NCBI GenBank assembly: GCA_964480435.1
Contig: CAYZSS010000001.1
Span: 4,047-36,046, forward strand
From: an uncultured archaeon
GTDB lineage: Archaea; Iainarchaeota; Iainarchaeia; Iainarchaeales; 0-14-0-20-30-16
DNA: 32,000 nt
Direction: 5' to 3'
Shown here in pieces: positions 13,762 through 29,875 of the stretch. A program made the translations under genes and the position numbers. Position 1 is the first letter of the stretch. The number at the start of each line of letters is the position of its first letter. A model generated the notes under the pieces. That model saw nothing but the letters and a program-made list of their open reading frames with translations. It was not told where the DNA came from and searched no databases.

Positions 13762-14667
13762 TTACAGCATACCCGCAAGCATTATTTGGGTAATATACTT
13801 TGCTAAAAAGAATATAATAAATCCAACAAACACAAATATCGGAAAGTACAATAATCCTTTTGTGGCATCTTTGTCTCGCATATAAGCAATAATAAAACTG
13901 GAAATTACTGACTCAAAGAAAAGATAAAACAATAAAACATTGTAAATTATTTCTCCAGATGCAATAGCATCAGCTATCTCTTTTGCGGATTCTACTATTC
14001 CTGTACTTGTGGAAACACTAACTAAAAAAGATATTAAAGTATTTACTAGTCCAAAAATTGCAGGAGCAATCATTGACCCAGCAGCAACAATAAATAATAC
14101 CTGCATAGTTGTTTTTGCTTTTCTTTCCTGTTGCATTTTATACAAGTTTCTTGCATCTTCTGAAATTTCATCAAGAACCTCAGATAACCCAGCCCCTGCC
14201 CTTACTGAATCTATTATTATAGTTATTACTTTTCTTATTAAACTTGAATCAACATTCTCATTTATTGATAATAAAGCATCTTCAAAATTTGCACCATCTT
14301 CTAATCTTCTCAATACTTTCTGTAGTTCTTTTGTTAGTGGGCCATAATCGATCAAGGTAATTTCCCTCAAAGCATATTCGTAAGTTCCACCGCTTTTTAG
14401 AATATCACTCATTTCCCTCAGAGCAGAAGGAAAGTGTTTCTCTATTAATTCTGTTCTTTTGTTTTCACGATAAATTGGAGCACTAATTATTATATCTCCA
14501 ACAGCAATTACTGCCACAGCAGCAAAAACATAATTATCAAATAAAAGGGCAACTAAAACACCAGCAACCAAACCAAATAAAATAGCAGTAACAATCCAAG
14601 CAACTGGTGACAATCTTATGTTATTTCTTTCCAATATTTTTTCATACTTCAATAACATATTGCTCAT
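13762..14667 (-). CDS. Type IV filament platform protein, single T2SSF domain (TadC-like)
   Basis: 301 aa. N-terminal TM, cytoplasmic T2SSF-like helical domain (FPSALREMSDILKSGGTYEYALREI...RLEDGANFEDAL), then C-terminal TMs. AGGTG lies upstream of the ATG. Confidence 0.75.
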   Translation of the reverse strand: MSNMLLKYEKILERNNIRLSPVAWIVTAILFGLVAGVLVALLFDNYVFAAVAVIAVGDIIISAPIYRENKRTELIEKHFPSALREMSDILKSGGTYEYALREITLIDYGPLTKELQKVLRRLEDGANFEDALLSINENVDSSLIRKVITIIIDSVRAGAGLSEVLDEISEDARNLYKMQQERKAKTTMQVLFIVAAGSMIAPAIFGLVNTLISFLVSVSTSTGIVESAKEIADAIASGEIIYNVLLFYLFFESVISSFIIAYMRDKDATKGLLYFPIFVFVGFIIFFLAKYITQIMLAGML

Positions 14668-14676
14668 AATCTACAC

Positions 14677-15783
14677 CTAATATGTGGGTCTAATTTTTCT
14701 AATATATAATAACAATCCAATTAAACACAGAGGAAGTAAAACAACATATAAAAATATTATTACTGGTGGAGTCAAAGGTAAAGATGAAAATAGAGACACC
14801 CCCCCACCCATAGGAATATTTCTTATGGTTCCAAGTATTGCAAGCATAACAGGAATAACAATTCCAACAAAAATATATATTACCCCAATGAAATTCATTT
14901 TTCCTGCAAATGATTCCAAAGTCAGCCTTATTTCGAAAGAAACATCTTTTGCAGTAGTATTCAGAATATCGGAAAGATTACCACCGGATTTTAAAGCTCT
15001 TAAAATGTGATTTATTGTATTTCTTAAAGAAAATGATTTTGTTCTGTATGCTAAATTTTTCAAAGCATCTTTAGTATCTGCTCCTTGTTCAACTTCATTT
15101 ATTACTCTTGCCATCTCTTCTGATAAATAACCATATTCTCCAACGGCAATAGTTTGCAAAACCCTATACAACCCTATCCCCGCTCTTAGTTCAGTTGCCA
15201 TATGTCTTAATGCAAAAGGAAGTTCGGCATCTATTTTTTTTCCCCTATTGTTAGCAACCATTACAGGGTACTTCAGGACAATAACTCCAGAAAAAAATAA
15301 AACTGCAAAAAATACAGCTATTAAGAGATACATCGATATATTAAACCAAAAAAACAAAACGCCTGCAGAAGCAGTAATAAATATTGTTGCCAAAACTGTA
15401 ATTACAGATGATATCGCCAAGTATTGTGATGTGCTGTAATTTATATTAGCGCTGTTTAACTCTTGGCTTACTTCATTACGCCCAGGAAAAACAGCTAAAA
15501 CCTTTTTTGCAAAAAAAGAAAAGAATGATGAAAATAAATTATAAATTTTTCCTACCAATCTTACATTATTGTTATAATCGGCAGCAAGATCTCTTGGTTT
15601 TTGAACTTCTATTTGGGCTCTTTTTCCTTCAGAAATTATAGACCTTAATTCTTGCAATCTTAATGAGTCTATTTCCGAATTTAATCCTTTTTCTTCATAT
15701 TTGTGCTTGATATTTGCGACAATAGACTCCACTTGATCCAAGTTGACCTTCTGTTGCATCTTGTCGTTTAAATCAAAACTCAT
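14677..15783 (-). CDS. Type IV filament platform protein, single T2SSF domain (TadB-like)
   Basis: 368 aa. T2SSF-like segment LPFALRHMATELRAGIGLYRVLQTI...VEQGADTKDALKNLA flanked by TM helices. Adjacent to the ATPase. Confidence 0.75.
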   Translation of the reverse strand: MSFDLNDKMQQKVNLDQVESIVANIKHKYEEKGLNSEIDSLRLQELRSIISEGKRAQIEVQKPRDLAADYNNNVRLVGKIYNLFSSFFSFFAKKVLAVFPGRNEVSQELNSANINYSTSQYLAISSVITVLATIFITASAGVLFFWFNISMYLLIAVFFAVLFFSGVIVLKYPVMVANNRGKKIDAELPFALRHMATELRAGIGLYRVLQTIAVGEYGYLSEEMARVINEVEQGADTKDALKNLAYRTKSFSLRNTINHILRALKSGGNLSDILNTTAKDVSFEIRLTLESFAGKMNFIGVIYIFVGIVIPVMLAILGTIRNIPMGGGVSLFSSLPLTPPVIIFLYVVLLPLCLIGLLLYIRKIRPTY

Positions 15784-15823
15784 TAAATCACTTCATTTTC
15801 ATATACAAAATAAAACATACTTT

Positions 15824-17476
15824 TCATTCTTCTTGCATTTCATAATATTTTTGAAGTTCCAAAGAAACTTCTTTTTGTGTTTTCAAATTTGAATCCAATA
15901 ATGTTTTTAGGAATACAGCCCTATTAGAAACTTCCTTTGTAACTTGTAACAGTGTCTTTCCTGAAAAAGTTGCAATTTTTTTCAAATATCTTGACGGTAC
16001 GGAAGTATCTTGTAGTTTATCTTCTTTAGGATCCCATTCAAATATTTTTTGTATTTGTATTTTATTTTCTAAAACACCACTTACTTCTGCGATTTCAGTA
16101 ATTCTTCTTATGGTACCTTTTCTTTTATCGTGTATTCTTTGCTGAACAAGAACAATATCCAATCCAGAAAGCATTACCTGAGGCACATCCATCGGTGGAG
16201 AAGTAACTCTTATTATTGTTTCTTGTGCTGAATTTGCGTGTACAGTCCCCATACAACCATCGTGCCCAGTATTCATGGCAGTAAATAAAGCCAATGCTTC
16301 TTTGTGTCTTACTTCACCAACAATTATTCTATCAGGTCTCATCCTCAAAGCATTTTTTGTTAAAATATCCAAGTCTATTTCTCCTGTACCTTCAATTCCA
16401 GGGGGTCTTGCCTCCAATCTTATCCAATGTGTTAAAGGAAGATTTAACTCAGCAGTGTCTTCAATAGTAATTATTCTTTCTCTTTGCGGAATAAAACTAG
16501 ACAACACATTCAAAGTAGTTGTTTTTCCTGAACCAGTACCACCCGCAATCAAAATATTTGCTGGTTTAACATCAAGACCATCAACACAAAGCCACAAAAA
16601 TGCAGCTGTCTGAAGATCAGTTGTGCCGTTGTTTATTAAATCTAAAATTGTATATGGCTCCTTTCTAAATTTTCTTATTGTAAGGGTAGATCCTGATACA
16701 GATACAGGGGGTATGGTTGCATTAATTCTTGAACCATCGCTTAATCTTGCATCAAGTAAAGGCTGAGAATAATCTATTCTTCTTCCAGTATATCTTGCAA
16801 TTCTAGAAATTAAGTCAATTATATCTTTATCTTCATAAAAAACAATATTAGTAGTCATTATTTCATATTCTCTATGAAATACATATACTGGTTTTTTTGG
16901 ACCAATGATCATAATTTCTTCCAGTTTATCATCTCGTAATAGAGCATCGATTATTCCAAAGCCAACCATTTCAGTTACTACTGCATTAGCATAAAAACTT
17001 TGTTTTCCTTCTGCAATTTTTAATTCAGGGGAAGAAGTAATAATTTCTAGCACCTTTTGGAAATAAACATTTCTTCTTTGCTGTTCATCCCTTATCTTAT
17101 AAGGAGCAATATTAATCAGCCTTGTTGCAGCCTCTTTAATTGTATTTATTATTATTTGTTCCCCACTTGATGCTTTAGGTACAGGAACTTCATAATGAAG
17201 TATAGGGTGGTTTTCTACTTTGTATATTTTTACAGTATCATATGAGGCAATTAATTTTTTATTTGCAGTTTCTAAATCTTCAAATTTGATAGGGGGAAGA
17301 GCATCAGGAGAAGGTATTTTTGAAGGGTTTTCTTTGCTATTGCCGGTAAAAAGGTTATTTTCTTTTGTTTCTTCTTTTTCTTTGCCACTTTCTTTTTCTT
17401 CTTTATTTTCTTTATTTTCTTTAGCCTCTTTACTCTCTTTATCACCTTTATTGAAAAGATTATCTACAAATACCAT
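15824..17476 (-). CDS. Type IV filament/secretion ATPase (FlaI/TadA/VirB11-like)
   Basis: Walker A GGTGSGKTT, Asp box RIITIEDTAEL, Walker B RPDRIIVGEVR and His box GHDGCMGTVHANS. ATG 17476 is preferred over track GTG 17485. Confidence 0.9.
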   Translation of the reverse strand: MVFVDNLFNKGDKESKEAKENKENKEEKESGKEKEETKENNLFTGNSKENPSKIPSPDALPPIKFEDLETANKKLIASYDTVKIYKVENHPILHYEVPVPKASSGEQIIINTIKEAATRLINIAPYKIRDEQQRRNVYFQKVLEIITSSPELKIAEGKQSFYANAVVTEMVGFGIIDALLRDDKLEEIMIIGPKKPVYVFHREYEIMTTNIVFYEDKDIIDLISRIARYTGRRIDYSQPLLDARLSDGSRINATIPPVSVSGSTLTIRKFRKEPYTILDLINNGTTDLQTAAFLWLCVDGLDVKPANILIAGGTGSGKTTTLNVLSSFIPQRERIITIEDTAELNLPLTHWIRLEARPPGIEGTGEIDLDILTKNALRMRPDRIIVGEVRHKEALALFTAMNTGHDGCMGTVHANSAQETIIRVTSPPMDVPQVMLSGLDIVLVQQRIHDKRKGTIRRITEIAEVSGVLENKIQIQKIFEWDPKEDKLQDTSVPSRYLKKIATFSGKTLLQVTKEVSNRAVFLKTLLDSNLKTQKEVSLELQKYYEMQEE

Positions 17477-17584
17477 TTCGCCCACCCAATTATAATTAGA
17501 TACAACATAACTAAATCATTATAAATAACTTATATTAATATATAAATGTTATAGTTGTTGTATTAATATAACGGAGGTAATACT
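17477..17584. promoter_or_regulatory. Divergent promoter region (ATPase operon and 17585 gene)
   Basis: TATA-like TTATAAATAA and ATATATAAAT. Two copies of palindromic TATTAATATA (17533-17542 and 17561-17570). SD GGAGGT precedes 17585. Confidence 0.35.
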
Positions 17585-17968: not shown

Positions 17969-17976
17969 AAAAAGCA

Positions 17977-17998: not shown

Positions 17999-18003
17999 AT
18001 TTT

Positions 18004-18180
18004 TTATTTTTTACCTTTTTTCTTAACAGCCTTCTTAGTTGCTTTCTTTACTACTTTCTTAACAGTTTTTTTTACTGCTTTCTTTACTGTTTTCTTTACT
18101 ACTTTTGGTTTAGCTACTTTCTTAACAGTTTTCTTTACTGTTTTTGGCTTAGCTACTTTTTTCTTTTTTACTGCTGGCAA
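18004..18180 (-). CDS. 58-aa lysine-rich tetrad-repeat protein (possible nucleic-acid-binding/histone H1-tail-like)
   Basis: Absent from the ORF track (under 60 aa). TTG start at 18180 with GGAGGGG 7 nt upstream. Translation: (M)PAVKKKKVAKPKTVKKTVKKVAKPKVVKKTVKKAVKKTVKKVVKKATKKAVKKKGKK. Ends at TAA 18004-18006, next to the terminator. Confidence 0.55.
   Translation of the reverse strand: MPAVKKKKVAKPKTVKKTVKKVAKPKVVKKTVKKAVKKTVKKVVKKATKKAVKKKGKK
18016..18165 (-). repeat. Imperfect 12-nt periodic repeat inside the lysine-rich ORF
   Basis: Recurring TTCTTAACAG(T/C) and TTTCTTTACT(G/A) units on the plus strand. These encode x-V-K-K tetrads. Confidence 0.6.
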
Positions 18181-18597: not shown

Positions 18598-19560
18598 TTA
18601 TTTATTCAGATAAAAGTTAGCAAGCATTGCTTCTATTTGAATTCTTTCTGTTGCACCTTGTGTTATTCTAAAATTAGTTTCTCCAATTACCTTTATTAAT
18701 TCTATTTTGTGCTCTAGTTTTATTTTTGAGTCATCACACTTTATTAATTCAGTATATACTTGCCCAACAATATCTTCGCCAGACATGCCATAATCAAACA
18801 TAAGTTTGTAAAGCAGTTCTCTTGCTTTTTTAAAGTCACCAGAGTAAGACGCAAAAATTAATTCGCCTATCTCTTCTGGTCTCGCTCTTGCGCTTACTTT
18901 AAACACATCTTCGCTTTTTATTTTTGTTTCAAGTGATGCGGTTGATTGTAAAATATTTATTGCCTTTCTTAGATCACCTTGGGAAACATAAAACAAAGAG
19001 TCTAAAGAACCCTTTTCAAAGTCTAGTTCTTCTATTTTTCCAATTTCTTCAAGTTTACTTATTATTGTATCCTTCTCTAAAGGCTTAAATCTAAATACAA
19101 CACATCTGCTTTGTATTGGCTCAATAATTCTACTTGAATAATTACATGACAAAATAAAACGACTAGTTTTTACATATCTTTCCATTGTTCTTCTCAAAGC
19201 TTGTTGAGCATCAGCAGTAAGAGAGTCAGCTTCATCCAAAAAAATAAGTTTATAGTCTGAGTTAAAAGGTAGAGTTCTTGCAAACTCTTTTATTGTATTT
19301 CTTACTACATCAATACCTCTATCATCAGATGCATTCAATTCTAAAAAATTTCTATCGTAATGTTCTCCAAAAAGATCTTTTGCCAAAGCAATAGCTGAAC
19401 TTGTTTTCCCAATTCCAGCAGAACCAGTAAACAGCATATTTGGGACCCGGTTTAGCTTGACATAGCTTCTTAACCTGTCTATTATAGATACGTGCCCAAC
19501 CACATCAGCCAAAGAGTCAGGCCTATATTTTTCGATCCATGGCAAGTTTTCTTTATCCAT
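18598..19560 (-). CDS. rfcS: Replication factor C small subunit
   Basis: LPWIEKYRP, Walker A GSAGIGKTS, DEADSLT, SRC motif QSRCVVFRF. ATG 19560 (MDKENLPW) is preferred over track TTG 19578. Confidence 0.92.
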   Translation of the reverse strand: MDKENLPWIEKYRPDSLADVVGHVSIIDRLRSYVKLNRVPNMLFTGSAGIGKTSSAIALAKDLFGEHYDRNFLELNASDDRGIDVVRNTIKEFARTLPFNSDYKLIFLDEADSLTADAQQALRRTMERYVKTSRFILSCNYSSRIIEPIQSRCVVFRFKPLEKDTIISKLEEIGKIEELDFEKGSLDSLFYVSQGDLRKAINILQSTASLETKIKSEDVFKVSARARPEEIGELIFASYSGDFKKARELLYKLMFDYGMSGEDIVGQVYTELIKCDDSKIKLEHKIELIKVIGETNFRITQGATERIQIEAMLANFYLNK

Positions 19561-19690
19561 AATATGATAAAAACACAATATTATTAAAAAGAAAATGCTC
19601 TTTGTTTTATATTACCAAAAAAGTGCCTAAAGGTATTTTAGGATTTCAAAATTAGGGATCAAATTTTAAAATAAAAAAAGAGGGAAAAAT

Positions 19691-20101: not shown

Positions 20102-20121
20102 ATAAAAAAGGCAGTGATAAA

Positions 20122-22296
20122 ATGGAATATGCAAGAGTAGATGAAATTATTATTAAAGTAAAAGAAGCCGACCCAAGTTTATTAGGCAGAAACATTATCA
20201 CCTTAGATGGTTCAAGCAAAGAAAGATTAAGATTATCTGCAGGGGATTTTGTTTCTATAAAAGGACAGAAAGAAACCGTTGCACAAGTATGGCCAACTCG
20301 TTCCATTGATGAACCCGAGGCATTTATTAGAATGGATAGCCTGATAAGACAAAATGCAAAAGTAGGCATTGGAGATACTGTACTAATTAAAAAAGCAGTT
20401 GTAAAAGAAGGACACAAAATAATTCTAGCACCAACACAAATTATAAAATTACCTCCCAATAATAACTTTGCAAGAATTGCAAAAAAACAATACTTAGGAC
20501 GAGCTTTAAGCGCAGGGGACAGAATACATTTGTCTTTATTTGGAAACCCAATGCAATATTTTGTTACAAAAACTAACCCCCCTGGGTTTGTATCAGTAAG
20601 TGATTCTACTATTTTTGAACTTCTTGAAACACCCATTACTCTGGAAAATGCCGAAATTTCAAAAATAGGATATAACAGAATAGGAGGTTTAGGAAAACAA
20701 TTAAATAAAGTAAGAGAAATGATTGAACTTCCGTTAAAGCACCCAGAAATATTTGAAAAAATGGGGGTTAGCCCGCCAAAAGGAATTTTATTTTTTGGAC
20801 CACCTGGAACAGGAAAAACTTTATTAGCCAGGGCAATTGCTAATGAAACAAATGCAAATTTTACTATAATAAACGGACCAGAAATTATGAGTAAATATGT
20901 TGGTGGTGCTGAAGAAAAACTAAGAACAATTTTTAAAGAAGCAGAGGAAAATGCCCCCGCAATTATTTTTATTGATGAGATAGATGCAATTGCAACAAAT
21001 AGAGACAATTCAGAAAGTGAAACAGGCCGAAGAGTTGTTGGACAATTACTTAGTTTAATGGATGGATTGCAAGCAAGAGGAGATATAATTGTTATTGCTG
21101 CAACAAATAGAGCTAACTCTATAGATCCCGCATTAAGAAGACCAGGAAGGTTTGATAGAGAACTACATATTAATGCACCAGACAAAGATGGTAGAAGAGA
21201 AATATTTGATATCCATACAGCTGGGGTTCCTCTTGCAAAGGATGTTAATTTAGATACTTTGGCAAAAAAAACTCACGGATTTGTTGGAGCAGATATTGCT
21301 GCCCTAATTAAAGAATCTGCAATGCAAGCTATTAGGCGAATACTTCCAAAAATCGATATGGAAGAAGAAACAATACCAAAAGAAATTTTAGACAGCTTAG
21401 AAATAATCATGCAAGATTGTGATAATGCTCTGCTTGAAGTACACCCTTCCGCATTAAGAGAAGTAATGATTGAAGTGCCAAATGTATCTTGGGAAGATAT
21501 TGGTGGCTTAGAAGAAGTCAAAGAACAATTAAAAAAAGGTGTTGAATGGCCTTTACAACATTCAGAATCATTCAGCAAAATGGGTATTAGCCCAATAAAA
21601 GGGATATTATTATATGGCCCTCCTGGAACGGGAAAAACAATGCTAGCAAAAGCAGTTGCAAGAAAAAGCGAAGCAAATTTTATTAGCGTAAGAGGTCCAG
21701 AATTATTTAGTAAATGGGTTGGAGATAGTGAAAAAGCACTAAGAGAAATATTTACAAAAGCAAGACAAACAAGCCCTTGTGTGATATTTTTTGATGAAAT
21801 AGATGCCTTAGCCCCAAGAAGAGACCAAATAGCGGATGGTGGGGTAAGTGCAAGACTAGTTAACCAACTTCTTGTTGAGTTAGATGGTCTGTCCGAGCTT
21901 AAAGGAGTTGTACTAATTGCTGCAACAAATAGACCGGATATTATTGATCCTGCTTTATTAAGACCAGGAAGATTTGATAATATTATTTTTGTTCCACCAC
22001 CTGATTTAGAATCAAGAAGAGAAATAATAAAAAAGGTTTCAAAAGATATGCCTTTATCAAAAGAAGCTGAAGAATTTTTAGATACTCTTGCAGAAAAAAT
22101 AGACACCTATTCAGGGGCAGACATAAATTCATTACTAAGAGAATCCGCGCTAATTTCTTTGGACAGATCAAAGATGAAAGACACCAAGGTCGGAGTAGAA
22201 GACATTAAAGCAGGGCTAAAAAAAATACGGCCTAGTCTTACAAAAGAAGTAGTAAATGAATATAAAAAATTTGAGAAAAATATAAATCTCAATTAA
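20122..22296 (+). CDS. cdc48: CDC48/VCP-like AAA+ ATPase (N domain plus D1 plus D2)
   Basis: 724 aa. Two AAA modules with GPPGTGKTLLARAIA / IIFIDEIDA and GPPGTGKTMLAKAVA / VIFFDEIDA. Each is followed by ATNRxxxIDPALxRPGRFD. Confidence 0.95.
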   Translation: MEYARVDEIIIKVKEADPSLLGRNIITLDGSSKERLRLSAGDFVSIKGQKETVAQVWPTRSIDEPEAFIRMDSLIRQNAKVGIGDTVLIKKAVVKEGHKIILAPTQIIKLPPNNNFARIAKKQYLGRALSAGDRIHLSLFGNPMQYFVTKTNPPGFVSVSDSTIFELLETPITLENAEISKIGYNRIGGLGKQLNKVREMIELPLKHPEIFEKMGVSPPKGILFFGPPGTGKTLLARAIANETNANFTIINGPEIMSKYVGGAEEKLRTIFKEAEENAPAIIFIDEIDAIATNRDNSESETGRRVVGQLLSLMDGLQARGDIIVIAATNRANSIDPALRRPGRFDRELHINAPDKDGRREIFDIHTAGVPLAKDVNLDTLAKKTHGFVGADIAALIKESAMQAIRRILPKIDMEEETIPKEILDSLEIIMQDCDNALLEVHPSALREVMIEVPNVSWEDIGGLEEVKEQLKKGVEWPLQHSESFSKMGISPIKGILLYGPPGTGKTMLAKAVARKSEANFISVRGPELFSKWVGDSEKALREIFTKARQTSPCVIFFDEIDALAPRRDQIADGGVSARLVNQLLVELDGLSELKGVVLIAATNRPDIIDPALLRPGRFDNIIFVPPPDLESRREIIKKVSKDMPLSKEAEEFLDTLAEKIDTYSGADINSLLRESALISLDRSKMKDTKVGVEDIKAGLKKIRPSLTKEVVNEYKKFEKNINLN

Positions 22297-22660: not shown

Positions 22661-23081
22661 CTTGTTCTTTAAATATACTCACCAGATATTCTTTTTTTCC
22701 TAATAAAGTCATACCATCCGTATTTGCTAGCCCTGACAAATCAAAAGATTTTATGCAAAGCCCATCAGCAGAACAGTATGCATTTTGTGGAGGATCTTTT
22801 AATGTTATTTTGTAAGTTAATGAATCTTGTAAAATGGTGATATTTGCATCTTCAGGGATAAATACAATTATTTGGGTTTTTGCAATAGACTCACTCAAAG
22901 AAACATATTCTATTGCTTCTTTTAAATTTTTTGCAGAGCCATCAATATATGCCAAACTAGAAATATCGCTTATAGAATCTTTTGCAGAATCAGAGAACGG
23001 GATTACTATTGTTTGCAATAAAATAAGAATTACCACAACAATCAAAATAAACTCAATGCTTAACTGACCTTTATTTCTCAT
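22629..23081 (-). CDS. Class-III-signal (type IV pilin-like) protein, 150 aa
   Basis: MRNKG|QLSIEFILIVVVILILL. ATGA overlap with the peptidase stop. GGTGGG SD. One Cys pair (CSADGLC). Confidence 0.7.
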   Translation of the reverse strand: MRNKGQLSIEFILIVVVILILLQTIVIPFSDSAKDSISDISSLAYIDGSAKNLKEAIEYVSLSESIAKTQIIVFIPEDANITILQDSLTYKITLKDPPQNAYCSADGLCIKSFDLSGLANTDGMTLLGKKEYLVSIFKEQDGKTYAEVIE

Positions 23082-24157
23082 ATTAACCCACCAACTAATA
23101 ACAATAAAACATAACTTAAAAACAAAGCAGGAGTTAAAGGGACACTTTGTTTAACATAAATCTCATTTGGAATTATTTTTTCCTTATGCAATTTCTTAAG
23201 CAAAGTAATATCTTCAGGATATAATCCACCCGGCCTTGCAAGAATTACATAATCGTAATTTTTGTCCTTCATTAAATCTAACTTCGATTGCAATATATCT
23301 TTATTTTTGAAATATTTAAAGATATCTTTTATTTTTGGCTTGTAAACTTGCTTGTTATCTTTAATATAAATCGATTCATAAAGTATTTCTCCCTCTATCA
23401 GACCCGATATCTTTTTTGCATTGGCAAAACCCCTTGATCTAACAAAACTAAACAATTTGACAAAAGAAAAGAAAATAACAGAAATTAGAACATAAACAAT
23501 AGCAGTAAAGATGTTTAGAGGATTAAGATACAAGGTAATTGCAAAAACTATTAGAGATATTGGCAACAAAATCTTCCAAGTTATTTTAAAAAGCAAAAAA
23601 GATAATAATGCGAATATTGTTGGAATCCCCAATAAACCAAATATAAAATATAAACCCACCAAAGTTATTGCAACAAAAAAGTAGCTTGGTAGCTTTTTTA
23701 CTAACTCCTGAAAAATTATTTTATAGTACTGATTAGCAATAATTCGTTTTATTGCTAAAAAGAAACCAAGTGGAAAAATAATAAATACTGATAGAATGAA
23801 GAAAGCCAGAATAAAATAGTAATTTATTCCTGATGAAAAAAATACTGAAAAATCTTGGAGAGGTATAGAAAAAGCCACCCCTGAAATTATTTTTGCATCC
23901 CCTCCTGCAAAAACAGAAAAATACCATAAGAGGTAACAAACAAAAAAAGTGCCAAATCCAATAATAAAAGGCCAGAATAAAAATTTGCCAACATAAATGC
24001 TTTTTGCTATCCAAAATAATATTCCAAACCCCATTAATCCAAAAGAAAGATAATTAGATATCTCCCTAGTCTTTAGATCAGTGTATGCCCCTATTGCCAG
24101 GGCAACAAAAACAACCACATAGTTAAGATAAGAAAAAATAAACTCTAAAAAATACAT
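23078..24157 (-). CDS. A24-family aspartyl prepilin/preflagellin peptidase with C-terminal extension
   Basis: Two catalytic Asp contexts about 60 aa apart: AYTDLKTREISN and VFAGGDAKIISG. Polytopic. An extra roughly 110-aa soluble segment plus a terminal TM at the C-terminus. Confidence 0.85.
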   Translation of the reverse strand: MYFLEFIFSYLNYVVVFVALAIGAYTDLKTREISNYLSFGLMGFGILFWIAKSIYVGKFLFWPFIIGFGTFFVCYLLWYFSVFAGGDAKIISGVAFSIPLQDFSVFFSSGINYYFILAFFILSVFIIFPLGFFLAIKRIIANQYYKIIFQELVKKLPSYFFVAITLVGLYFIFGLLGIPTIFALLSFLLFKITWKILLPISLIVFAITLYLNPLNIFTAIVYVLISVIFFSFVKLFSFVRSRGFANAKKISGLIEGEILYESIYIKDNKQVYKPKIKDIFKYFKNKDILQSKLDLMKDKNYDYVILARPGGLYPEDITLLKKLHKEKIIPNEIYVKQSVPLTPALFLSYVLLLLVGGLI

Positions 24158-24187
24158 AATATAAAAAAAGGAGGAGAGAATAAAAAA
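24158..24187 (-). terminator. Two oligo-T tracts between the last small pilin and the peptidase gene
   Basis: Minus strand reads TAG-TTTTTT-ATTCTCTCCTCC-TTTTTTT-ATATT-ATG. These are A6 at 24182-24187 and A7 at 24163-24169 on the plus strand. Possible partial terminator. Confidence 0.35.
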
Positions 24188-24379
24188 CTATTCGAAAGTC
24201 TTCTTAAAAAACTCAAGTTTATAATTTTCTATCCTTGTTTGGGCAACTTGCCCAATTTTTCTTAATTGCATCACAAAAAGAGTAACAGCAATAACAAGCA
24301 AAACAGAGAAAACGATAGTGAGAAGGTACTCAAATGAGATTTGCCCTCTTTTATCTTTTACTGCTTTACTTACTAACAT
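24188..24379 (-). CDS. Small class-III-signal pilin, 63 aa
   Basis: MLVSKAVKDKRG|QISFEYLLTIVFSVLLVIAVTLFV. SD AGTGATC upstream. Confidence 0.75.
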   Translation of the reverse strand: MLVSKAVKDKRGQISFEYLLTIVFSVLLVIAVTLFVMQLRKIGQVAQTRIENYKLEFFKKTFE

Positions 24380-24389
24380 AAGATCACTT

Positions 24390-24665
24390 TTATTCTACAA
24401 CACTGCCATCTAGATTAAAGTCTTTTGTTGCTTTATTTATTTGGTCATCATATACTTGCTGAGTATCGTTAATATCATCTTTTGCTGCTGAAGATGTTTT
24501 TATTAATACCCCTATTACAACTGCGGCAATAAGAATTGCTGCACCAATGATTAAAAGATATTCAAGGGCACCTTGTCCTTTTTTTTCTTTTAAAAAAATG
24601 GACCCTGTTGGGGTTTTGTTTGAAAACCCACAACTTGGTGCCTTAGTTTCTTTTAAGAAAGACAT
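24390..24665 (-). CDS. Small class-III-signal pilin with long (31 aa) leader, 91 aa
   Basis: ...SIFLKEKKG|QGALEYLLIIGAAILIAAVVIGVLI. ATG 24665 is supported by GAGTGATA 4 nt upstream. Confidence 0.7.
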   Translation of the reverse strand: MSFLKETKAPSCGFSNKTPTGSIFLKEKKGQGALEYLLIIGAAILIAAVVIGVLIKTSSAAKDDINDTQQVYDDQINKATKDFNLDGSVVE

Positions 24666-24671
24666 ATCTTA

Positions 24672-24869
24672 TCACTCTGCTATAACGTGATTTAAGTCAT
24701 CTAGTTGATTTGATGCTGTATTCATGGATTCGTTTACATCAGTCTTTGCTGACCTTGCTGAGCTTATTAGAACTGCAATTACAATTGCTGCAATTAGTAC
24801 TGCTGCTCCTATAATCAAAATATACTCTAAAGCACCCTGTGCTTTCTTATCTTTCACAAATTTGAACAT
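24672..24869 (-). CDS. Small class-III-signal pilin (candidate major pilin), 65 aa
   Basis: MFKFVKDKKA|QGALEYILIIGAAVLIAAIVIAVLI. ATG 24869 has GGAGGT 7 nt upstream. The upstream extension in the track (to 24893) lacks an SD. Confidence 0.85.
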   Translation of the reverse strand: MFKFVKDKKAQGALEYILIIGAAVLIAAIVIAVLISSARSAKTDVNESMNTASNQLDDLNHVIAE

Positions 24870-24870
24870 C

Positions 24871-25047
24871 TTAATTACCTCCAACCTGTTCACTTACTTG
24901 ATCTATTAAATCTGCGCCTTGTTGCTGTGGTTTAGCAAGGCTTCTTTTTAAATATACTCCTACTAGCGTTGCAATAACAATAACTATGACTACTCCAATA
25001 AGGAGTTCTATGCTTGCTTGTCCTTTTTTCTCTTTTATGAAGGTCAT
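24871..25047 (-). CDS. Small class-III-signal pilin, 58 aa
   Basis: MTFIKEKKG|QASIELLIGVVIVIVIATLVGVYL. This is the C-terminal part of the 161-aa track ORF. AGGGTG lies upstream of ATG 25047. Confidence 0.8.
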   Translation of the reverse strand: MTFIKEKKGQASIELLIGVVIVIVIATLVGVYLKRSLAKPQQQGADLIDQVSEQVGGN

Positions 25048-25135
25048 TACAACACCCTTTATGATATATACATTATACTTATTTTTATACGTTTCTATCT
25101 TGAATATAATAATAAATACTGGTTTGGGTGACATT
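25048..25135. promoter_or_regulatory. Divergent promoter region (pilin operon and 25136 gene)
   Basis: AT-rich with several TATA-like boxes: TTTATGATATATAC, TTATTTTTATAC, GAATATAATAATAAAT. Sits between divergent starts. Confidence 0.35.
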
Positions 25136-25951
25136 TTGGGTGCAAAACTTCTTGATCTCATTAAACGAAATAGAACTACACAAATCACATTGAGATTGCC
25201 TGATTTTAGAGTTAAATCAGTGAGAAAAGGGAAAGGACTTGATATTAAAATAGAGAAAATATTTGGAAGAATACACGAAATTAACTTAGAAAAAGCCAAT
25301 TTGACTAGTTTTTCAGAAGTACTTACAAAAATCCTTGATAGAATTGAGACAAACATTCAACATGTAAATAACTTAGAGCAAGTTGCCAGAGTATTAGCAG
25401 ATGTTTTCGTAAAGCTAGAGCCGCTAGAAACAAAAGGGCTAGAAGCGCGAAGAAGAATCTTTAACTTCCTTATTGTTGCCGGGTTTTCTAAAGAAAGAAA
25501 AGACGAATTTTCCAGAAAATTTGTGAAATTAAACTGGGTTAGCGGATTAGCCTCAGAGCAGAATGAAAAGCTTGCTGCCCCTGAGCTAATTATGGTGGCT
25601 TTATCAAGAGAAACTAGTGACATAAAAATCGACCAAAAAATATTTAGTGCAGGAGTTAAAAATTTACCAGAAGTGGCCAGAAAATGGGCAAAAGACGTAA
25701 ACTCAATAACTAATTTGGGGGCGGTAGTGGCAGGAGCAATTAGATTTTACAAATCCGAAATCAGTAAAGATAAGATAGAAAATAGAGCTGCTGTTGCGGG
25801 AATATATAATTTTTTATTTGCTGTTGCTGGTTCTTCAGAAGATGACGCAATAAGGCAAACAGCAAGGTCTTTTTTGAAGAAAAACTGGCTGCCAAAATTA
25901 GTTGATCCAGATATTTTCAGAAAACATATTGGGAAAATAGCACAAGGTTAA
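25136..25951 (+). CDS. Hypothetical soluble protein with internal duplication
   Basis: Two related roughly 90-aa halves: RRRIFNFLIVAGFSKERKDEFSRKFVKLNWVSGL and VAGIYNFLFAVAGSSEDDAIRQTARSFLKKNWLPKL. TTG 25136 was chosen because GGGTGA lies 4 nt upstream. The start is uncertain. Confidence 0.45.
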   Translation: MGAKLLDLIKRNRTTQITLRLPDFRVKSVRKGKGLDIKIEKIFGRIHEINLEKANLTSFSEVLTKILDRIETNIQHVNNLEQVARVLADVFVKLEPLETKGLEARRRIFNFLIVAGFSKERKDEFSRKFVKLNWVSGLASEQNEKLAAPELIMVALSRETSDIKIDQKIFSAGVKNLPEVARKWAKDVNSITNLGAVVAGAIRFYKSEISKDKIENRAAVAGIYNFLFAVAGSSEDDAIRQTARSFLKKNWLPKLVDPDIFRKHIGKIAQG

Positions 25952-26019
25952 AAACAATAAGATATTTAAATATCTGTTTTTATTCTTATATAGTTATTTA
26001 TATTTATGGAGGCTTAAAA

Positions 26020-26289
26020 ATGGACTTAGATTTTGGTAAGGTAGTTGGCGTTGAAAAAGTAAGTAGAGAAATAGTTGCCTATAACATTGTAAAATTATAT
26101 TTCGAGCAAATTGCTAGATTAGGGTACAAGAGAAAACTTGATTTAGATGCTATAATTACAGCATATTTCTACGTTCTAGGAAAACTTGAAGCCAAGCATA
26201 TAGAGACAGAAATAAATAAACAACCAGCTTTTGTAGAAGAAACTGCAAAAGAAATGGAAAAAGAGTATGAAAGAGAAAGAGTAAATTAA
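26020..26289 (+). CDS. Hypothetical small protein, 89 aa
   Basis: ORF with GGAGG SD 7 nt upstream. Helical, with a charged C-terminus. No recognisable motif. Confidence 0.5.
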   Translation: MDLDFGKVVGVEKVSREIVAYNIVKLYFEQIARLGYKRKLDLDAIITAYFYVLGKLEAKHIETEINKQPAFVEETAKEMEKEYERERVN

Positions 26290-26359
26290 ATGCCCAAAAA
26301 GCATCTTATTTTATTACAGAAGATTTAGGGGCATTTAAATCAAAAAAAGAGTGGTTTAG

Positions 26360-27682
26360 ATGTTCTTAGATAAGTATGAGCCAAATAGTTTTGATAATTT
26401 TGTAGGGAACAGAGGGGCTAAAGAAGAAATGGCTTCTTGGGCAAATAATTTTGACAATGAAAAAAAGCCCCTGCTAATTGTTGGTCCAACTGGAACAGGA
26501 AAGAGTACCGCAGCAAGAATATTAGCAAACGTAAATAATTGGCAAACCAATGAAATAAGTGCTGATGAACAAAGAGATAAAGAATCACTAGAAAGACGGA
26601 TGGAGCTTTTTGTTCAATCAATTTCTTTTTTTAATAAACGAAACTTATTCATATTTGAAGACCTTGATTTTTTATCTTCAAAAGACAAGGGAGCAATCAC
26701 AAAAATTTCAGAAATAGTAAAGATTGCAAAAAATCCGATAATATTTACTGCCACAGATATTTATTCAAATCAAAAAATTAAAGAAATATCTGCCCAATGC
26801 AGAGTAGTAAATTTTAAAAGATTAACCTATTTAGAGATATCAAAAAAATTGATGCAAATTGCCCAAGAAGAAGATATTTATTCAAATAAAGAAGCATTAG
26901 ATATAATTGCAAAAAATGCAAAGGGCGACCTAAGAGCAGCAATATTAGATTTAGAAGCATTGGCTGATATAGGAGTTACAGAAAAAACCTTGTCTACCCT
27001 TGGAGAAAGAGAGAGAGAGGACAGCATTTTTACAACGCTTATGAATATACAGATGTCAAAAAACCTTTCTGAAGCAAAGAAAATACAGGACTCCTGCAAT
27101 ATTGACTATGACATGCAATTTGCATGGGTGAATGAAAATGTTTCTGCAATTTATAATCAGCCTGAATTAACAAAAGCCTATGATTTAATCTCATATGCTG
27201 ATTTAATGAGAAACAACATTTACAAAAGACAAAACTGGGTTTTTTTAAAATATTACTTAATGACTGGAATTGTTCTTCCACTTATGCTTCCAAATAAAAA
27301 ATTTGTAAAATATTCTTTCCCAACTTTTATTTCAAAAATGTCAAAAGAGAAAAGTACTTTTGCCAAAAACAAGGTACTTGCTAAACTTGTTCAAAAAATT
27401 GTAAGAGGCGGATCAAAAAAGATTGTTTCTGAGATATATTTTTACAACAACTATTTTGAGACTGCGCCAGAAGGAGTAATAGAATCAAGCTATACTACAG
27501 CAGAAATAGAACAAATCGAAAAGCTTTTAAAAATAAAAATTAAAAGAATGAAAAAAGAAATACCTTTGGGCGATGAGAACAAGACAACAACAAAAAATAA
27601 ACCAGAACCCAAAGAAAAAGAATTAACCACTACAAAGATCAAAGAACCTAAAAACAAAATAAAACAAACCACTTTATTTTAA
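26360..27682 (+). CDS. rfcL: Replication factor C large subunit
   Basis: FLDKYEPNSFDNFVGN, Walker A VGPTGTGKST and an AAA+ clamp-loader layout. K/E-rich C-terminal linker ending in the PIP-like KQTTLF. Confidence 0.85.
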   Translation: MFLDKYEPNSFDNFVGNRGAKEEMASWANNFDNEKKPLLIVGPTGTGKSTAARILANVNNWQTNEISADEQRDKESLERRMELFVQSISFFNKRNLFIFEDLDFLSSKDKGAITKISEIVKIAKNPIIFTATDIYSNQKIKEISAQCRVVNFKRLTYLEISKKLMQIAQEEDIYSNKEALDIIAKNAKGDLRAAILDLEALADIGVTEKTLSTLGEREREDSIFTTLMNIQMSKNLSEAKKIQDSCNIDYDMQFAWVNENVSAIYNQPELTKAYDLISYADLMRNNIYKRQNWVFLKYYLMTGIVLPLMLPNKKFVKYSFPTFISKMSKEKSTFAKNKVLAKLVQKIVRGGSKKIVSEIYFYNNYFETAPEGVIESSYTTAEIEQIEKLLKIKIKRMKKEIPLGDENKTTTKNKPEPKEKELTTTKIKEPKNKIKQTTLF

Positions 27683-27697
27683 TAAAAAGTCTCTTTT

Positions 27698-28225
27698 TTA
27701 TTTTTGCCCTTCTTTTTCAGAAATTTGAGAGTCAACATCTGTTATAACATAATCACAAACATCTGTGCCGTCAGGTGGCGGAGAAGTAGCCAGATTTGAA
27801 TTAATTATTTTTTTAAAAGTAAACGCAGAATAATAGGAAAAATCAAGATCTCCTTTTTTGTAATTATTATTTATATCCAAAACAACACTTACTGTTTTCA
27901 CAGGGTCTATTGCTAATGTTATGTTGTTTATTTTTACATCACATAAAAAAGAAGAATCATTAAAGTCATCACAAAAACTACTTTGTTTTGATTCAAAATC
28001 TATTTTAAAAGCATTAAAATCAAAATCGCAGGATTCATAAGATTCAAAGGATTCCGCAATATACCTCGTAACAATATTATTCAAATACAAATATTGCATC
28101 TCATTTTTTGATATAAATTCAGGATAGTAATTAGGGGTTTGCGCGTTATGGGCCACATTAAATAAAAGAAGAGAAATTCCCACCAATACAATAATTACAC
28201 TAAAAAAACCACTTTTACTTTTCAT
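27698..28225 (-). CDS. Pilin-like protein (weak class-III-signal), 175 aa
   Basis: MKSKSG|FFSVIIVLVGISLLLF, with no acidic residue near +5. Four Cys. Last gene of a four-gene run that is overlapping or closely spaced. Track start 28234 is a GTG; ATG 28225 is preferred. Confidence 0.5.
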   Translation of the reverse strand: MKSKSGFFSVIIVLVGISLLLFNVAHNAQTPNYYPEFISKNEMQYLYLNNIVTRYIAESFESYESCDFDFNAFKIDFESKQSSFCDDFNDSSFLCDVKINNITLAIDPVKTVSVVLDINNNYKKGDLDFSYYSAFTFKKIINSNLATSPPPDGTDVCDYVITDVDSQISEKEGQK

Positions 28226-28481
28226 AATAACCACTATAACAAAATTCCTTAATTACTGCACCGGAATTTATTGTTTCTTTAATTGTATTATAACACAAAT
28301 AACTATTGGAGTCTACACCCTTACTAGGTTTATTTAAATAATATGACACAGTTTTATCAGATGAAAAATAAGATAAATCAAAATTTGGTTTTTTTAATTC
28401 ATTAACAGGTACAGAAAAAATTGTTATTAGCAGACCAGCAATAAAAATTAAATCAAATGTAAAAATAAAACCCTTATTCAT
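28215..28481 (-). CDS. Class-III-signal pilin-like protein, 88 aa
   Basis: MNKG|FIFTFDLIFIAGLLITIFSV. Two Cys. 4-nt overlap with the upstream gene. Confidence 0.6.
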   Translation of the reverse strand: MNKGFIFTFDLIFIAGLLITIFSVPVNELKKPNFDLSYFSSDKTVSYYLNKPSKGVDSNSYLCYNTIKETINSGAVIKEFCYSGYYEK

Positions 28482-28975
28482 TTGTATCCAGCCCCAATTA
28501 TTATTTCTTTTTCTTCTAAATCACAACTAGCTAAACCCATAACACAGTCATAGTAATTAGCTTTTTTTACTGGCCCTGAGTGAGCAATAATTTTTAATTT
28601 CTTTTCTGCCCCTTTTACGACTAAGTCAGATTCAAAGGTTATTCCTGAAATAGATACTGCTATATTTTCAGGCAGCCCTAGTTTTGATTTGTTAAATTTA
28701 GTCAAGTCAATACAGTAGGCAATATACTTAATAAAATTTCCATCTTCGTTTACAAGTTCGCAAGAGAAGTTTTCATTTAGTGCAATTTTATTTTCTATTA
28801 AATCAATATAACTTGTTAGTTCAATATTTGATTTATTTATATTATACTGATGTAAAGAATACGCAAAACCCTGATATAAAATCCCAAGAAGAAAGACAAA
28901 AAGAATTGTTGCAAAAACCAGATCAAGGGAGAATATTATCCCTTTTTGATTCTTCTTTCCGTTCTTAACCTGCAT
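28478..28975 (-). CDS. Class-III-signal pilin-like protein, 165 aa
   Basis: MQVKNGKKNQKG|IIFSLDLVFATILFVFLLGIL. Four Cys. ATG 28975 follows GTGAT plus 4 nt; the track start 28984 is a GTG inside that SD. Confidence 0.6.
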   Translation of the reverse strand: MQVKNGKKNQKGIIFSLDLVFATILFVFLLGILYQGFAYSLHQYNINKSNIELTSYIDLIENKIALNENFSCELVNEDGNFIKYIAYCIDLTKFNKSKLGLPENIAVSISGITFESDLVVKGAEKKLKIIAHSGPVKKANYYDCVMGLASCDLEEKEIIIGAGYK

Positions 28976-28980
28976 AAACA

Positions 28981-29325
28981 TCACTTGTTAAAATATACTG
29001 CTGCATTACAAAAATAATTGTCTAATTCACCCACTGCAACTAATTTACTTTGCTTATTTTCCAAGTCCGACACAAAATAATTTCCATCCTGATAGTAAAA
29101 ACTTTTCTCCTCGCACTCTAAATTATATTTTAAATCATAGCCTGCGGGAAGATCCAAAGCAGCAAACAGGGGGCGCATATTGCTGGCTGAACCTGACAAA
29201 TCCGAATCCAACCTTAAAATATCTGTTTTCTCAAGGATAGTATCTCCAAAAACAAAGAACACAGAGAAAAGGATGGCGAATATAATTATTGCCAATAAAA
29301 AATCCAGTGATATCTGCCCTTTCAT
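28981..29325 (-). CDS. Class-III-signal pilin-like protein, 114 aa
   Basis: MKG|QISLDFLLAIIIFAILFSVFFVF, with Q at +1 and D at +5. Two Cys. First gene of the block. Confidence 0.7.
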   Translation of the reverse strand: MKGQISLDFLLAIIIFAILFSVFFVFGDTILEKTDILRLDSDLSGSASNMRPLFAALDLPAGYDLKYNLECEEKSFYYQDGNYFVSDLENKQSKLVAVGELDNYFCNAAVYFNK

Positions 29326-29395
29326 ATTATCGCCTTAATTACATATAAATAACAGGGCTTTAATTAAAAAACTTTGTTATTTTCTTATTTATAAC
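29326..29395. promoter_or_regulatory. Divergent promoter region (pilin-like operon and archaeosortase-like gene)
   Basis: 70-bp AT-rich spacer with TATA-like ACATATAAATAA and TTTAATTAAAAAA. No SD precedes 29396, so that transcript may be leaderless. Confidence 0.3.
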
Positions 29396-29875
29396 ATGGA
29401 CAAAAGAATAATCCTATTTATTTTTATTGGTTTATTAGTAAACCTTACTTTCTTTTTTGTAATTGACTCGATTTATACCCCGTTCCCCCAATTAGTAGGA
29501 AAAAGCATATCTTTAATTACCAATTTTAATTTTGATTATAACCCAAACCCCGCTTATTACACCCCTGATTACGATTTAGAAATAAACAACCTTTGCACTG
29601 GTTTTGCAACTTTCTTCTTATTAGCAAGCATTATAATAATACAAAAATCATTAAGACTTACAAAAAATAGTTGGAAAAACATAGCCATTTTTTTGCCTTT
29701 GTCATTTATACTGCTTTATTTAATAAATATCCTGCGATTATTAGTAATTTTATATTTTGGAAATTCGCAAACCATCACAGAAACCTTGCATATTATTGGT
29801 TGGATGATGATGGGTGTAACAGTATTTTTGCTGTGGATGTTTTTTGAAAAAAAGAATAAAAATATCTCTTGTTAG
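29396..29875 (+). CDS. Miniature exosortase/archaeosortase-family protein (putative)
   Basis: 159 aa polytopic protein. Family-like order and spacing of candidate catalytic residues: NNLCTGFATFFLL (Cys), 47 aa later LINILRLLVILY (Arg), 18 aa later TLHIIGWMMMG (His). Confidence 0.6.
   Translation: MDKRIILFIFIGLLVNLTFFFVIDSIYTPFPQLVGKSISLITNFNFDYNPNPAYYTPDYDLEINNLCTGFATFFLLASIIIIQKSLRLTKNSWKNIAIFLPLSFILLYLINILRLLVILYFGNSQTITETLHIIGWMMMGVTVFLLWMFFEKKNKNISC

Follow-up and report, generated by a model that had tools for sequence, protein, structure and literature searches.

The window analysed here is a stretch of 32,000 nucleotides from an uncultured archaeon of the Iainarchaeota (assembly GCA_964480435.1, contig CAYZSS010000001.1, positions 4,047 to 36,046 of the forward strand); all coordinates given without a locus label are positions in this window. 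Between positions 13762 and 29875, it carries 14 pilus genes, arranged in three blocks on the minus strand, together with a small gene of the exosortase/archaeosortase family. These genes most likely encode one functional type IV pilus machine of the Epd-like kind ("clade 1" or "System 1"), a reading to which we assign a probability of about 0.85. The Epd-like pilus is the closest archaeal relative (sister) of the bacterial Tad pilus. The pilus locus as such is ordinary, System 1 having already been catalogued in DPANN archaea, and its split layout is a local rearrangement. More tentatively, gene order in related genomes hints that the pilus may take part in DNA uptake.

The three blocks had been outlined in a preliminary description of the window, the coordinates and gene content of which were correct: profile searches of the window proteins found all 14 pilus genes and the archaeosortase-like gene, with rfcS, cdc48 and rfcL between the blocks. 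Searches with hidden Markov models (HMMs) for T2SSE, T2SSF and Peptidase_A24 matched all three families in the expected genes. The parts that characterize the type IV filament superfamily are thus present (a T2SSE ATPase, a T2SSF platform, an A24 peptidase with two aspartates, and class III subunits), as are those of the Epd-like group, namely two contiguous single-T2SSF platform genes, short pilins, and a DUF361-type site in all six prepilin-like proteins of block 2. The Epd-like/Tad clade is defined by short pilins and a pair of single-T2SSF platform genes, and Tad itself is thought to be derived from it (PMC6668835). Judged from its genes, the filament machine appears to be complete, with all assembly parts present and their motifs intact.

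The assembly machinery and its short pilins

The pilus assembly ATPase of block 1 (15824-17476, minus strand; 550 amino acids (aa)) is a CpaF/TadA-like member of the T2SSE family (PF00437, 166.8 bits). Its nucleotide-binding motifs are intact: both Walker motifs (A and B) and the Asp and His boxes were all located, with the Walker A sequence GGTGSGKTT at residue 312 and IEDTAEL, RPDRIIVGE, GHDG and HANS elsewhere in the protein. The 550-aa reading starts at an ATG that is also the public gene call, follows a Shine-Dalgarno-like GGGTGGG site and matches the database protein P0001 exactly; a 553-aa reading from a GTG start matched nothing in the look-up and was discarded. Against the Protein Data Bank, the ATPase matched afGspE, CpaF and FlaI with 264, 246 and 209 bits, respectively, while the identity of the core was 44.0% to CpaF, 40.7% to afGspE and 39.9% to FlaI. 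The stretches RLExRPPxxEGxGE and MNTGHDGxMGTxHANS are common to the ATPase and CpaF, and its relatives bear the NCBI name "CpaF family". In a neighbour-joining tree without support values, the ATPase fell within a DPANN clade, with CpaF branching beside it and FlaI and afGspE outside; membership of clade 1 by this tree is likely, not proven.

The platform is encoded by two genes that directly follow the ATPase gene on the same strand. Platform protein 1 (14677-15783, 368 aa; PF00482, 74.7 bits) and platform protein 2 (13762-14667, 301 aa; PF00482, 62.5 bits) each have a single T2SSF domain. The first, which has four hydrophobic segments, aligns to the N-terminal half of the two-domain platform proteins (positions 7-189 of 555 in ArlJ and 22-245 in UpsF), and the second to the C-terminal half (274-554 of 555 in ArlJ and 263-446 in UpsF). 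By these alignments, the two look like one two-domain platform gene split in two.

Across DPANN metagenome-assembled genomes (MAGs; Iainarchaeota/"Diapherotrites", Micrarchaeota and unclassified), relatives of the ATPase are about 65% identical to it, and the copies of Thermococcus, Hadarchaeota and Hydrothermarchaeota about 50% (about 51% for the ATPases of Thermococcus loci). The source organism is an Iainarchaeum-like DPANN archaeon. Many homologues are 830-950 aa long and may owe this length to inteins; one listed match (P0114) has an intein annotation, and inteins (Intein_splicing plus LAGLIDADG) are found in the pilus ATPase gene of locus L030 (9524-12853) and in rfcS of L039 (609-3494).

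Block 2 (22289-25047, minus strand) is a tight operon with intergenic gaps of at most 30 nucleotides or overlaps, in which genes for pilins of 58, 65, 91 and 63 aa are followed by that for a 359-aa A24 peptidase and by those for larger proteins of 150 and 123 aa. In the sequences that follow, an arrow marks the predicted cleavage site. The 58-aa pilin (24871-25047; KKG↓QASIELL) is encoded by the first gene, upstream of which are an AAGGGTG ribosome-binding site and an AT-rich promoter region; its positional orthologues lie directly after the platform genes in 10 relatives. The 65-aa, Flp-like pilin (24672-24869; KKA↓QGALEYILIIGAAVLIAA) has Gln at +1, Glu at +5 and Tyr at +6, and the 91-aa pilin (24390-24665; KKG↓QGALEYLLIIGAAILIAA) is its paralogue, up to 82% identical by BLASTP to pilins of the relatives L009 and L006. 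The 63-aa pilin (24188-24379; KRG↓QISFEYLL) always comes just before the peptidase and has a positional orthologue in 16 relatives. All of these short pilins (58-91 aa) have a predicted mature length of 49-61 aa and no globular domain. The QGALEYLL family is the most conserved of the pilins and is multi-copy in relatives; the multi-copy QGALEY-type pilins are likely the major subunit, and the 65-aa Flp-like pilin is the candidate for the major pilin here.

The peptidase (23078-24157, minus strand), which is present in 24 related loci, is an EppA-like class III signal (prepilin) peptidase that matches both Peptidase_A24 (PF01478, 35.6 bits) and Arc_PepC (36.9 bits) and has both catalytic aspartates, D27 and D87 (the latter in AGGD). 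Among the NCBIfam models, EppA matches it best, over the full length and with 52 bits where the cut-off is 450, and a crude hydropathy count gives seven segments, as opposed to the nine transmembrane (TM) segments of the EppA type. The gene for the 150-aa protein (22629-23081; NKG↓QLSIEF) follows the peptidase in 17 relatives and is followed in turn by that for the 123-aa protein (22289-22660; QKG↓QSSFEIL; 119 aa by public gene calls), positional homologues of which come behind the 150-aa gene in no fewer than 10 relatives (E = 1e-5 to 0.006 by phmmer). The 123-aa protein has no Pfam match and was recognized by the class III rule given below. Both proteins are candidate minor pilins.

All six prepilin-like proteins of block 2 have Gln at +1 and Glu at +5. 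The full QxSxE is found in four of the six; in the 65- and 91-aa pilins, position +3 is Ala instead (QxAxE). DUF361 is defined as QxSxE with Gln at +1, and EppA cleaves it specifically in Methanococcus maripaludis (PMC2910488), where the pilins have Gln at +1 and Glu at +5 and are 67-76 aa long (PMC3875500). Three of the window pilins have Glu5-Tyr6, the Flp-type motif, a minor point of resemblance to Tad.

Are all ten of the proteins in blocks 2 and 3 really prepilin-like? This had been proposed in the preliminary description, and the answer depends on the yardstick. Our own class III rule, which was combined with the DUF361 definition taken from reviews, looks for a charged stretch, [K/R/S][G/A] at -2/-1 and then 23-35 residues without a second charge; all ten N-termini conform, having a short basic leader, such a site and 23-35 hydrophobic residues. 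The Pfam family Class_IIIsignal (PF04021, cut-off 23.7 bits) supports fewer. It scores above cut-off for the 65- and 91-aa pilins (34.3 and 33.5 bits) and sub-threshold for three others, those of 150 aa (E = 0.0003), 63 aa (E = 0.00074) and 58 aa (E = 0.0011), and it gives no match for the 123-aa protein or any block 3 protein, i.e., for five of the ten. The weakly scoring N-termini were nevertheless accepted as prepilin-like because both the gene order and the N-terminal sites are conserved in relatives: the succession of 58-aa pilin, 65/91-aa pilin, 63-aa pilin, peptidase, 150-aa protein and 123-aa protein is kept in about 20 related genomes.

Could the locus instead be a reduced archaellum, that is, a motility filament? 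The highest raw score of the ATPase in NCBIfam is indeed to FlaI (314 bits), ArlJ models match both platform proteins, and Arch_flagellin matches the 91-aa pilin weakly. However, all these scores are far below the cut-offs (314 against 550 bits for FlaI, a maximum of 81 against at least 400 for ArlJ, and 25 against 29.5 for Arch_flagellin), the platform is split over two genes, the pilins are 58-91 aa long and lack a globular domain, and the ATPase core is nearer to CpaF than to FlaI. Profile searches found no archaellum-specific parts in the window, in agreement with the preliminary description, and ArlH, ArlF/G, ArlC/D/E and ArlX are absent from the window and from the clusters of relatives alike. 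On these grounds, the archaellum was rejected as wildly improbable. The split platform, the short pilins with Gln at +1 and Glu at +5, the EppA-like peptidase and the sub-cut-off FlaI score all bear out the Tad/Epd-like filament that had first been suggested.

A probable minor-pilin module and the archaeosortase-like gene

The four genes of block 3, all on the minus strand, encode further proteins of this kind. Gene 1 (28981-29325; 114 aa, MKG↓QISLDFLL) was assigned as minor-pilin-like by the class III rule; it has a QxSxD site, is 52-53% identical to its equivalents in L082 and L083, and has a positional counterpart in L009 (18911-19333). Gene 2 (28478-28981; 167 aa) encodes a probable minor pilin of a "Q-x-F-S-L-D" family, identified by its family HMM and predicted fold. 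The family comprises 71 cluster representatives at E ≤ 1e-3, all of 145-265 aa, and has the N-terminus [KRN][GA]↓Q-[IL]-F-S-L-D; position +6 is Asp in 67 of its 73 members. The HMM matches open reading frames (ORFs) beside pilus genes in eight further loci; matches lie inside the pilus loci of L007, L025 and three Hadarchaeota MAGs and close behind the main cluster in L015 and L035. An AF2 model of the 167-aa protein (pLDDT 77.8) has a 50-residue N-terminal helix packed on a five-strand sheet, a predicted fold of generic pilin shape.

Gene 3 (28215-28481; 88 aa, NKG↓FIFTFDLIF), likewise minor-pilin-like by the class III rule, is 63-66% identical in L082 and L083 and has a counterpart in L009 (19826-20104) with KKG↓FIFSTEA. 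Gene 4 (27698-28225; 175 aa, KSG↓FFSVIIV) is pilin-like on account of relatives with [KR]KG↓FFSVII; in L082 and L083, it is 49-53% identical and has the canonical KG site, and its position in L009 is taken by a 355-aa class III protein with a Laminin_G_3 domain.

The whole of block 3 is kept in five relatives, including L082, L083, L090 and L091, at 49-69% identity, and [KR]G sites are retained in all four families in relatives. The best named relative of block 3 is a Candidatus Iainarchaeum MAG (GCA_028710695.1), which has the same layout of block 3, rfcL and block 2. In L009, an analogous set of four class III genes (140, 167, 92 and 355 aa) comes after the main pilus cluster. Block 3 thus belongs to the pilus system, probably as a conserved four-gene minor-pilin module.

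Divergent from block 3 is the gene for a mini exosortase/archaeosortase-family protein of 159 aa (29396-29875, plus strand; PF09721, 35.2 bits; TIGR04178, 38.4 bits against a cut-off of 23). Its Cys67, Arg114 and His132 are invariant in the alignment. It scores 36.7 bits to XrtK, below the cut-off of that family, and 23.7 bits, against a cut-off of 95, to ArtE (TIGR04124, aligned over positions 3-152 of 153), which places it outside ArtE proper. The divergent pairing with block 3 is kept in L082, L083, L090 and L091 at 49-69% protein identity. Outside the window's own clade, archaeosortase-like genes were found near the ATPase in two of 80 loci (L019 and L059); two matches in about 1.1 Mb are not clearly above chance, and no enrichment near pilus ATPases is claimed. 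A metagenome scan with the archaeosortase alignment returned three near-identical or close loci, which provide no test of a wider link to pili. The tie between this gene and the pilus is not proven; it is suggested by synteny within one clade and by the phenotype of ArtE in Methanococcus.

Two of the archaeosortase-like genes elsewhere deserve mention in their own right. That of L059 (2383-4756), a Hydrothermarchaeaceae MAG, encodes a genuine archaeosortase C (231 bits to TIGR03762) and has a pilus-type ATPase gene directly upstream of it, and an unclassified 141-aa gene of this type in L019 precedes a 436-aa class III protein with Ig-like domains.

One might suppose that block 3, the archaeosortase-like gene, or both, are unrelated to the pilus, the former encoding ordinary small membrane proteins and the latter a sortase for other C-terminally anchored proteins. 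Block 3 proteins have no Pfam or NCBIfam family match, none of the window proteins was noted to have a C-terminal sorting signal, and the low frequency of archaeosortase-like genes near ATPases outside the clade points in the same direction. Nevertheless, such independence is improbable: it would leave unexplained why all four block 3 families keep their [KR]G sites, why L009 has the four genes in the same order attached to its main cluster, why matches to the gene 2 family lie inside DPANN and Hadarchaeota pilus loci, and why the predicted fold is pilin-like. As for the sortase, the divergent pairing is conserved, and ArtE is needed for pilus-dependent transformation in M. maripaludis.

Several observations weigh against the interpretation of the locus as an Epd-like pilus machine. 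The ATPase tree, besides being a neighbour-joining tree without support values, includes one archaellum reference and no Methanococcus EpdL. Just two of the ten N-termini reach the curated Pfam score. A Foldseek search with the block 3 model found no similar solved pilin. The peptidase, the ATPase and the archaeosortase-like protein are all below the NCBIfam equivalog cut-offs. There is no second ATPase (MinD/TadZ/FlaH-like, arCOG04148, or MinD/FleN-like) in the window, nor was one found among the ORFs between rfcS and the ATPase gene in L009; the second ATPase is usually a stand-alone gene, and so may lie elsewhere in the genome. Finally, the pilus of this lineage is known here from genes alone.

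Gene order in relatives, attachment and a possible role in DNA uptake

How did the three blocks come to be separated? In about 20 DPANN relatives, the genes for the ATPase, the two platform proteins, the 58-aa, 65/91-aa and 63-aa pilins, the A24 peptidase and the 150- and 123-aa proteins follow each other in this order as one same-strand cluster (for example in L009, L013, L016, L022, L024 and L026), often starting right after rfcS. The three-block layout is thus a derived, lineage-specific break-up of a cluster that most relatives keep contiguous: rfcS, cdc48 and rfcL do intervene, as had been noted from the outset, and yet the split is not a trait of the system. In the window, the pilin/peptidase module is on the other side of cdc48 and rfcS, and in several relatives cdc48, on the opposite strand, is found a few kb upstream of rfcS, so that one transposition, that of the pilin module, is enough to account for blocks 1 and 2. 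Nor is a split layout unusual for this kind of system, since the Epd system of M. maripaludis is spread over at least four loci (PMC3875500).

The preliminary description had also remarked on the interleaving with replication genes. For rfcS, this is partly inherited synteny. The gene is found immediately upstream of the ATPase gene, on the same strand, in 10 of 71 relatives (L012, L013, L016, L017, L018, L021, L022, L024, L064 and L066, of which two carry the label Hydrothermarchaeota/Methanobacteriota); another eight have it within 10 kb. The distance from its end to the ATPase gene is 1-14 bp in eight relatives of the DPANN clade and also in the context of P0007, and the two ORFs overlap in two other archaeal MAGs. 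In the window, rfcS is at 18598-19578, with two small genes between it and the ATPase gene. These arrangements indicate that rfcS is a real, inherited neighbour of the pilus ATPase. The same was considered for rfcL and discarded, its apparent matches being cross-matches to rfcS; rfcL is linked to blocks 3 and 2 solely within the window's own clade.

In type IV filament systems, prepilins insert into the membrane through the N-terminal helix, an A24 peptidase removes the leader on the cytoplasmic side, and an ATPase on a platform drives the subunits into a helical filament. By analogy, the ten prepilin-like proteins would insert by their hydrophobic N-terminal helices, and the EppA-like aspartyl peptidase would cut behind [K/R/S][G/A] and so remove the basic leader, which leaves Gln (or Phe/Ile) at +1 and Glu/Asp at +5 or +6. 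The CpaF-like ATPase, presumably a hexamer, would dock on a heterodimeric platform of the two half-size T2SSF proteins and lift the short Flp-like pilins (49-61 aa when mature) from the membrane into a thin filament, which the 150- and 123-aa pilins and the block 3 proteins, as minor pilins, may prime or cap. CpaF drives both extension and retraction (PMC11300603), and the single CpaF-like ATPase may do the same here.

What is the pilus for? Attachment is the safe call, because modular class III proteins of adhesin type occur in relatives; in and beside their pilus clusters, class III signals are fused to domains such as Laminin_G_3 (L009, 20101-21168), four CHB_HEX_C/Fn3_assoc repeats (L013, 947-2431) and Big_7/Invasin (L019, 6844-8154). 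The target might be a host cell. The Epd pilus was itself first characterized for attachment, and a role in transformation was added later (PMC3875500, PMC6668835). In a transposon screen of M. maripaludis, natural transformation was found to need the Epd pilus genes, ArtE, MMJJ_13020 and MMJJ_13030 (Fonseca et al. 2023, PMC10133366). MMJJ_13020 is a single-TM protein with a fold of the OB type (oligonucleotide/oligosaccharide-binding), and the adjacent MMJJ_13030 is a TctA-like transporter proposed to be the DNA channel; ArtE and these two were confirmed by in-frame deletion and complementation (PMC10133366).

Genes of the same two types accompany the pilus in DPANN relatives. In 15 of the 19 DPANN loci that have enough downstream sequence, the pilin module is closely followed on its own strand by a gene for TctA (PF01970, 99.7 bits in L009); such a gene is found in none of 21 non-DPANN loci, and never upstream of the pilus genes. 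In 13 of the loci, TctA is immediately preceded by a gene for a 110-130-aa protein with one N-terminal TM helix and an OB fold (PF01336, 50-53 bits), and the stop and start codons of the two often overlap. Before the OB gene there is usually one for a DUF2101 membrane protein, and after TctA one for a Prok-JAB protein; such extended clusters are seen in L009 (16965-18836), L024 (17964-21203), L004 (15694-17756) and L039 (17674-19707). To judge from domain content, the OB/TctA pair of the relatives has the same architecture as the transformation pair of M. maripaludis. The TctA-linked loci fall in four ATPase subclades, with ATPases 51-70% identical to that of the window, so that plain inheritance of gene order is unlikely as a full explanation. 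No mention of a linkage between pilus, OB and TctA genes was found in the literature searched, a search that was incomplete.

A public contig that overlaps the window at 20960-32000 with 99.94% identity extends the view of this genome. On it, TctA is 5.5 kb away from the archaeosortase-like gene, beyond the end of the window by 3.3 kb. The pilus genes, the small archaeosortase-like gene and TctA are thus all within about 23 kb.

Does the pilus then serve adhesion to surfaces or host cells and nothing else, TctA and the OB protein being an unrelated transporter kept in place by gene-order inertia? We would give this slightly less than even odds. Attachment is the first characterized role of the Epd pilus, adhesin-type class III proteins are present in L009, L019 and L013, and TctA stands alone here, 5.5 kb away, with no OB partner found. 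Against such inertia stand the co-oriented TctA behind the pilins in 15 of 19 DPANN loci, the overlapping codons of OB and TctA, the spread over four ATPase subclades, and the genetic requirement for a pair of the same architecture, together with Epd pili, in M. maripaludis transformation. The adhesion-type pilus of the preliminary description therefore stands as far as attachment is concerned, and adhesion alone is too narrow given this linkage.

The wider possibility, which we put forward tentatively and by analogy with M. maripaludis, is that the DPANN Epd-like pilus is the surface part of a DNA-uptake (competence) apparatus and acts in the first stage of uptake. On this proposal, which in its full form is equally speculative, the cluster of ATPase, platforms, Flp-like pilins, peptidase, minor pilins, DUF2101 protein, OB-fold DNA binder, TctA channel and JAB protein might make up one uptake set, to which the small archaeosortase could perhaps have been added in the window's lineage. 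The output would be an attachment pilus with a possible hand-over of DNA to the OB-fold/TctA route, and the recurrent junction of rfcS and the ATPase gene might reflect the same link to DNA metabolism. Three points count against DNA uptake: the sequence available from this genome revealed neither the OB-fold partner nor DUF2101; TctA here is outside the window and does not share the orientation of the pilus genes; and TctA as a DNA channel is the hypothesis of one paper (PMC10133366).

Why would such an apparatus matter? The sole candidates for uptake genes in archaea come from one Methanococcus transposon screen. To our knowledge, how archaea take up DNA is not known, and archaea are without ComEC. 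The DPANN linkage offers physical support, independent of genetics, for the Methanococcus transformation genes, and makes the model of an uptake machine testable. DPANN archaea are nucleotide-poor and host-dependent, and often unable to make nucleotides, and the ultrasmall Saccharibacteria are naturally competent. If the proposal is true, host-dependent DPANN archaea import DNA, much as Saccharibacteria do, and the linkage bears on how these genome-reduced organisms feed on their hosts or surroundings.

Other genes of the window were noted in passing. The peptidase M50 gene (10792-11388) was represented by a single insertion in the Methanococcus screen and has a counterpart beside rfcS in one relative; as an uptake gene it was dropped, a phmmer search with the window copy giving no match in the other fetched loci. 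In a 455-aa fusion protein (12345-13712, minus strand), a thymidylate synthase domain stands between an MtrA-like N-terminus and a pterin-binding DUF4346 domain at the C-terminus, an unusual architecture for a thymidylate synthase. Repeats of Lys, Val, Ala and Thr (KKTVKKVAKPK...) make up almost the whole of a 58-aa ORF (18004-18180, minus strand), which resembles a peptide of the histone H1 type or another basic peptide that binds nucleic acids. The overlapping public contig L001, where this ORF is called as a gene, is the sole other fetched locus to match. Between the pilin operon and rfcL are plus-strand ORFs of 296 aa (25062-25951) and 89 aa (26020-26289), which have no family match, and a gene of about 90 aa occupies the same position beside rfcL in L090, L091 and L092. 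A tRNA scan found no tRNA genes in the window, and a scan for sigma-70 promoters, a model that is meaningless for an archaeon, gave what was expected from shuffled sequence.

Comparison with known systems

The likeness to the bacterial Tad/Flp pilus (type IVc; TadA/CpaF, TadB, TadC, TadV, Flp and TadE/F) comprises the order of ATPase, platform and platform genes, the half-size platform proteins, tiny pilins with G↓xxxxEY, larger pseudopilin-like proteins, and an ATPase core 44% identical to that of CpaF. Unlike Tad systems, the window lacks the secretin RcpA as well as TadD and TadZ, which is what one would expect of a cell that has no outer membrane. Furthermore, the ATPase scores 243 bits to TadA (TIGR03819; cut-off 373), Flp_Fap is matched at E = 0.03, below cut-off, and the peptidase has the archaeal Arc_PepC domain. 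The system probably operates in the manner of a Tad pilus, yet falls outside that group.

The Epd pilus of M. maripaludis is closer. It shares with the window system two separate platform genes beside the ATPase gene and, probably, a dedicated long A24 peptidase. In both, the pilins have Gly at -1, Gln at +1 and Glu at +5 (DUF361), those of major type are very short and are accompanied by minor pilins about twice as long, and the genes are distributed over several loci. It differs in that its pilins are reported to lack Glu5-Tyr6 (PMC3875500), which three of the window pilins carry. The four-gene module of "QxFSLD" type is a further distinction of the window, as is the lack of a FlaH/MinD-like second ATPase nearby, and the DUF2101, TM-OB, TctA and JAB genes that are joined to the cluster in the window's relatives are unlinked in M. 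maripaludis. System 1 has been reported in DPANN, and Thermococcales are said to carry it (2026 census, bioRxiv 10.64898/2026.04.22.720090).

In archaeal pilus nomenclature, the clade 1 label reportedly goes back to Makarova 2016, and that of System 1 to Sivabalasarma & Albers 2026.

The transformation set of M. maripaludis is the third point of comparison. No thermonuclease, MinD/ParA pair or OB partner was found in the sequence available here, the archaeosortase-like protein is below the ArtE cut-off (23.7 against 95 bits), and the genes of the set are scattered in M. maripaludis, whereas they are fused into clusters in DPANN relatives. On the other hand, this genome has the pilus genes, a small archaeosortase-like gene and TctA, and in its DPANN relatives one cluster holds the genes of an Epd-type pilus together with those of a single-TM OB-fold protein and of a TctA-like transporter.

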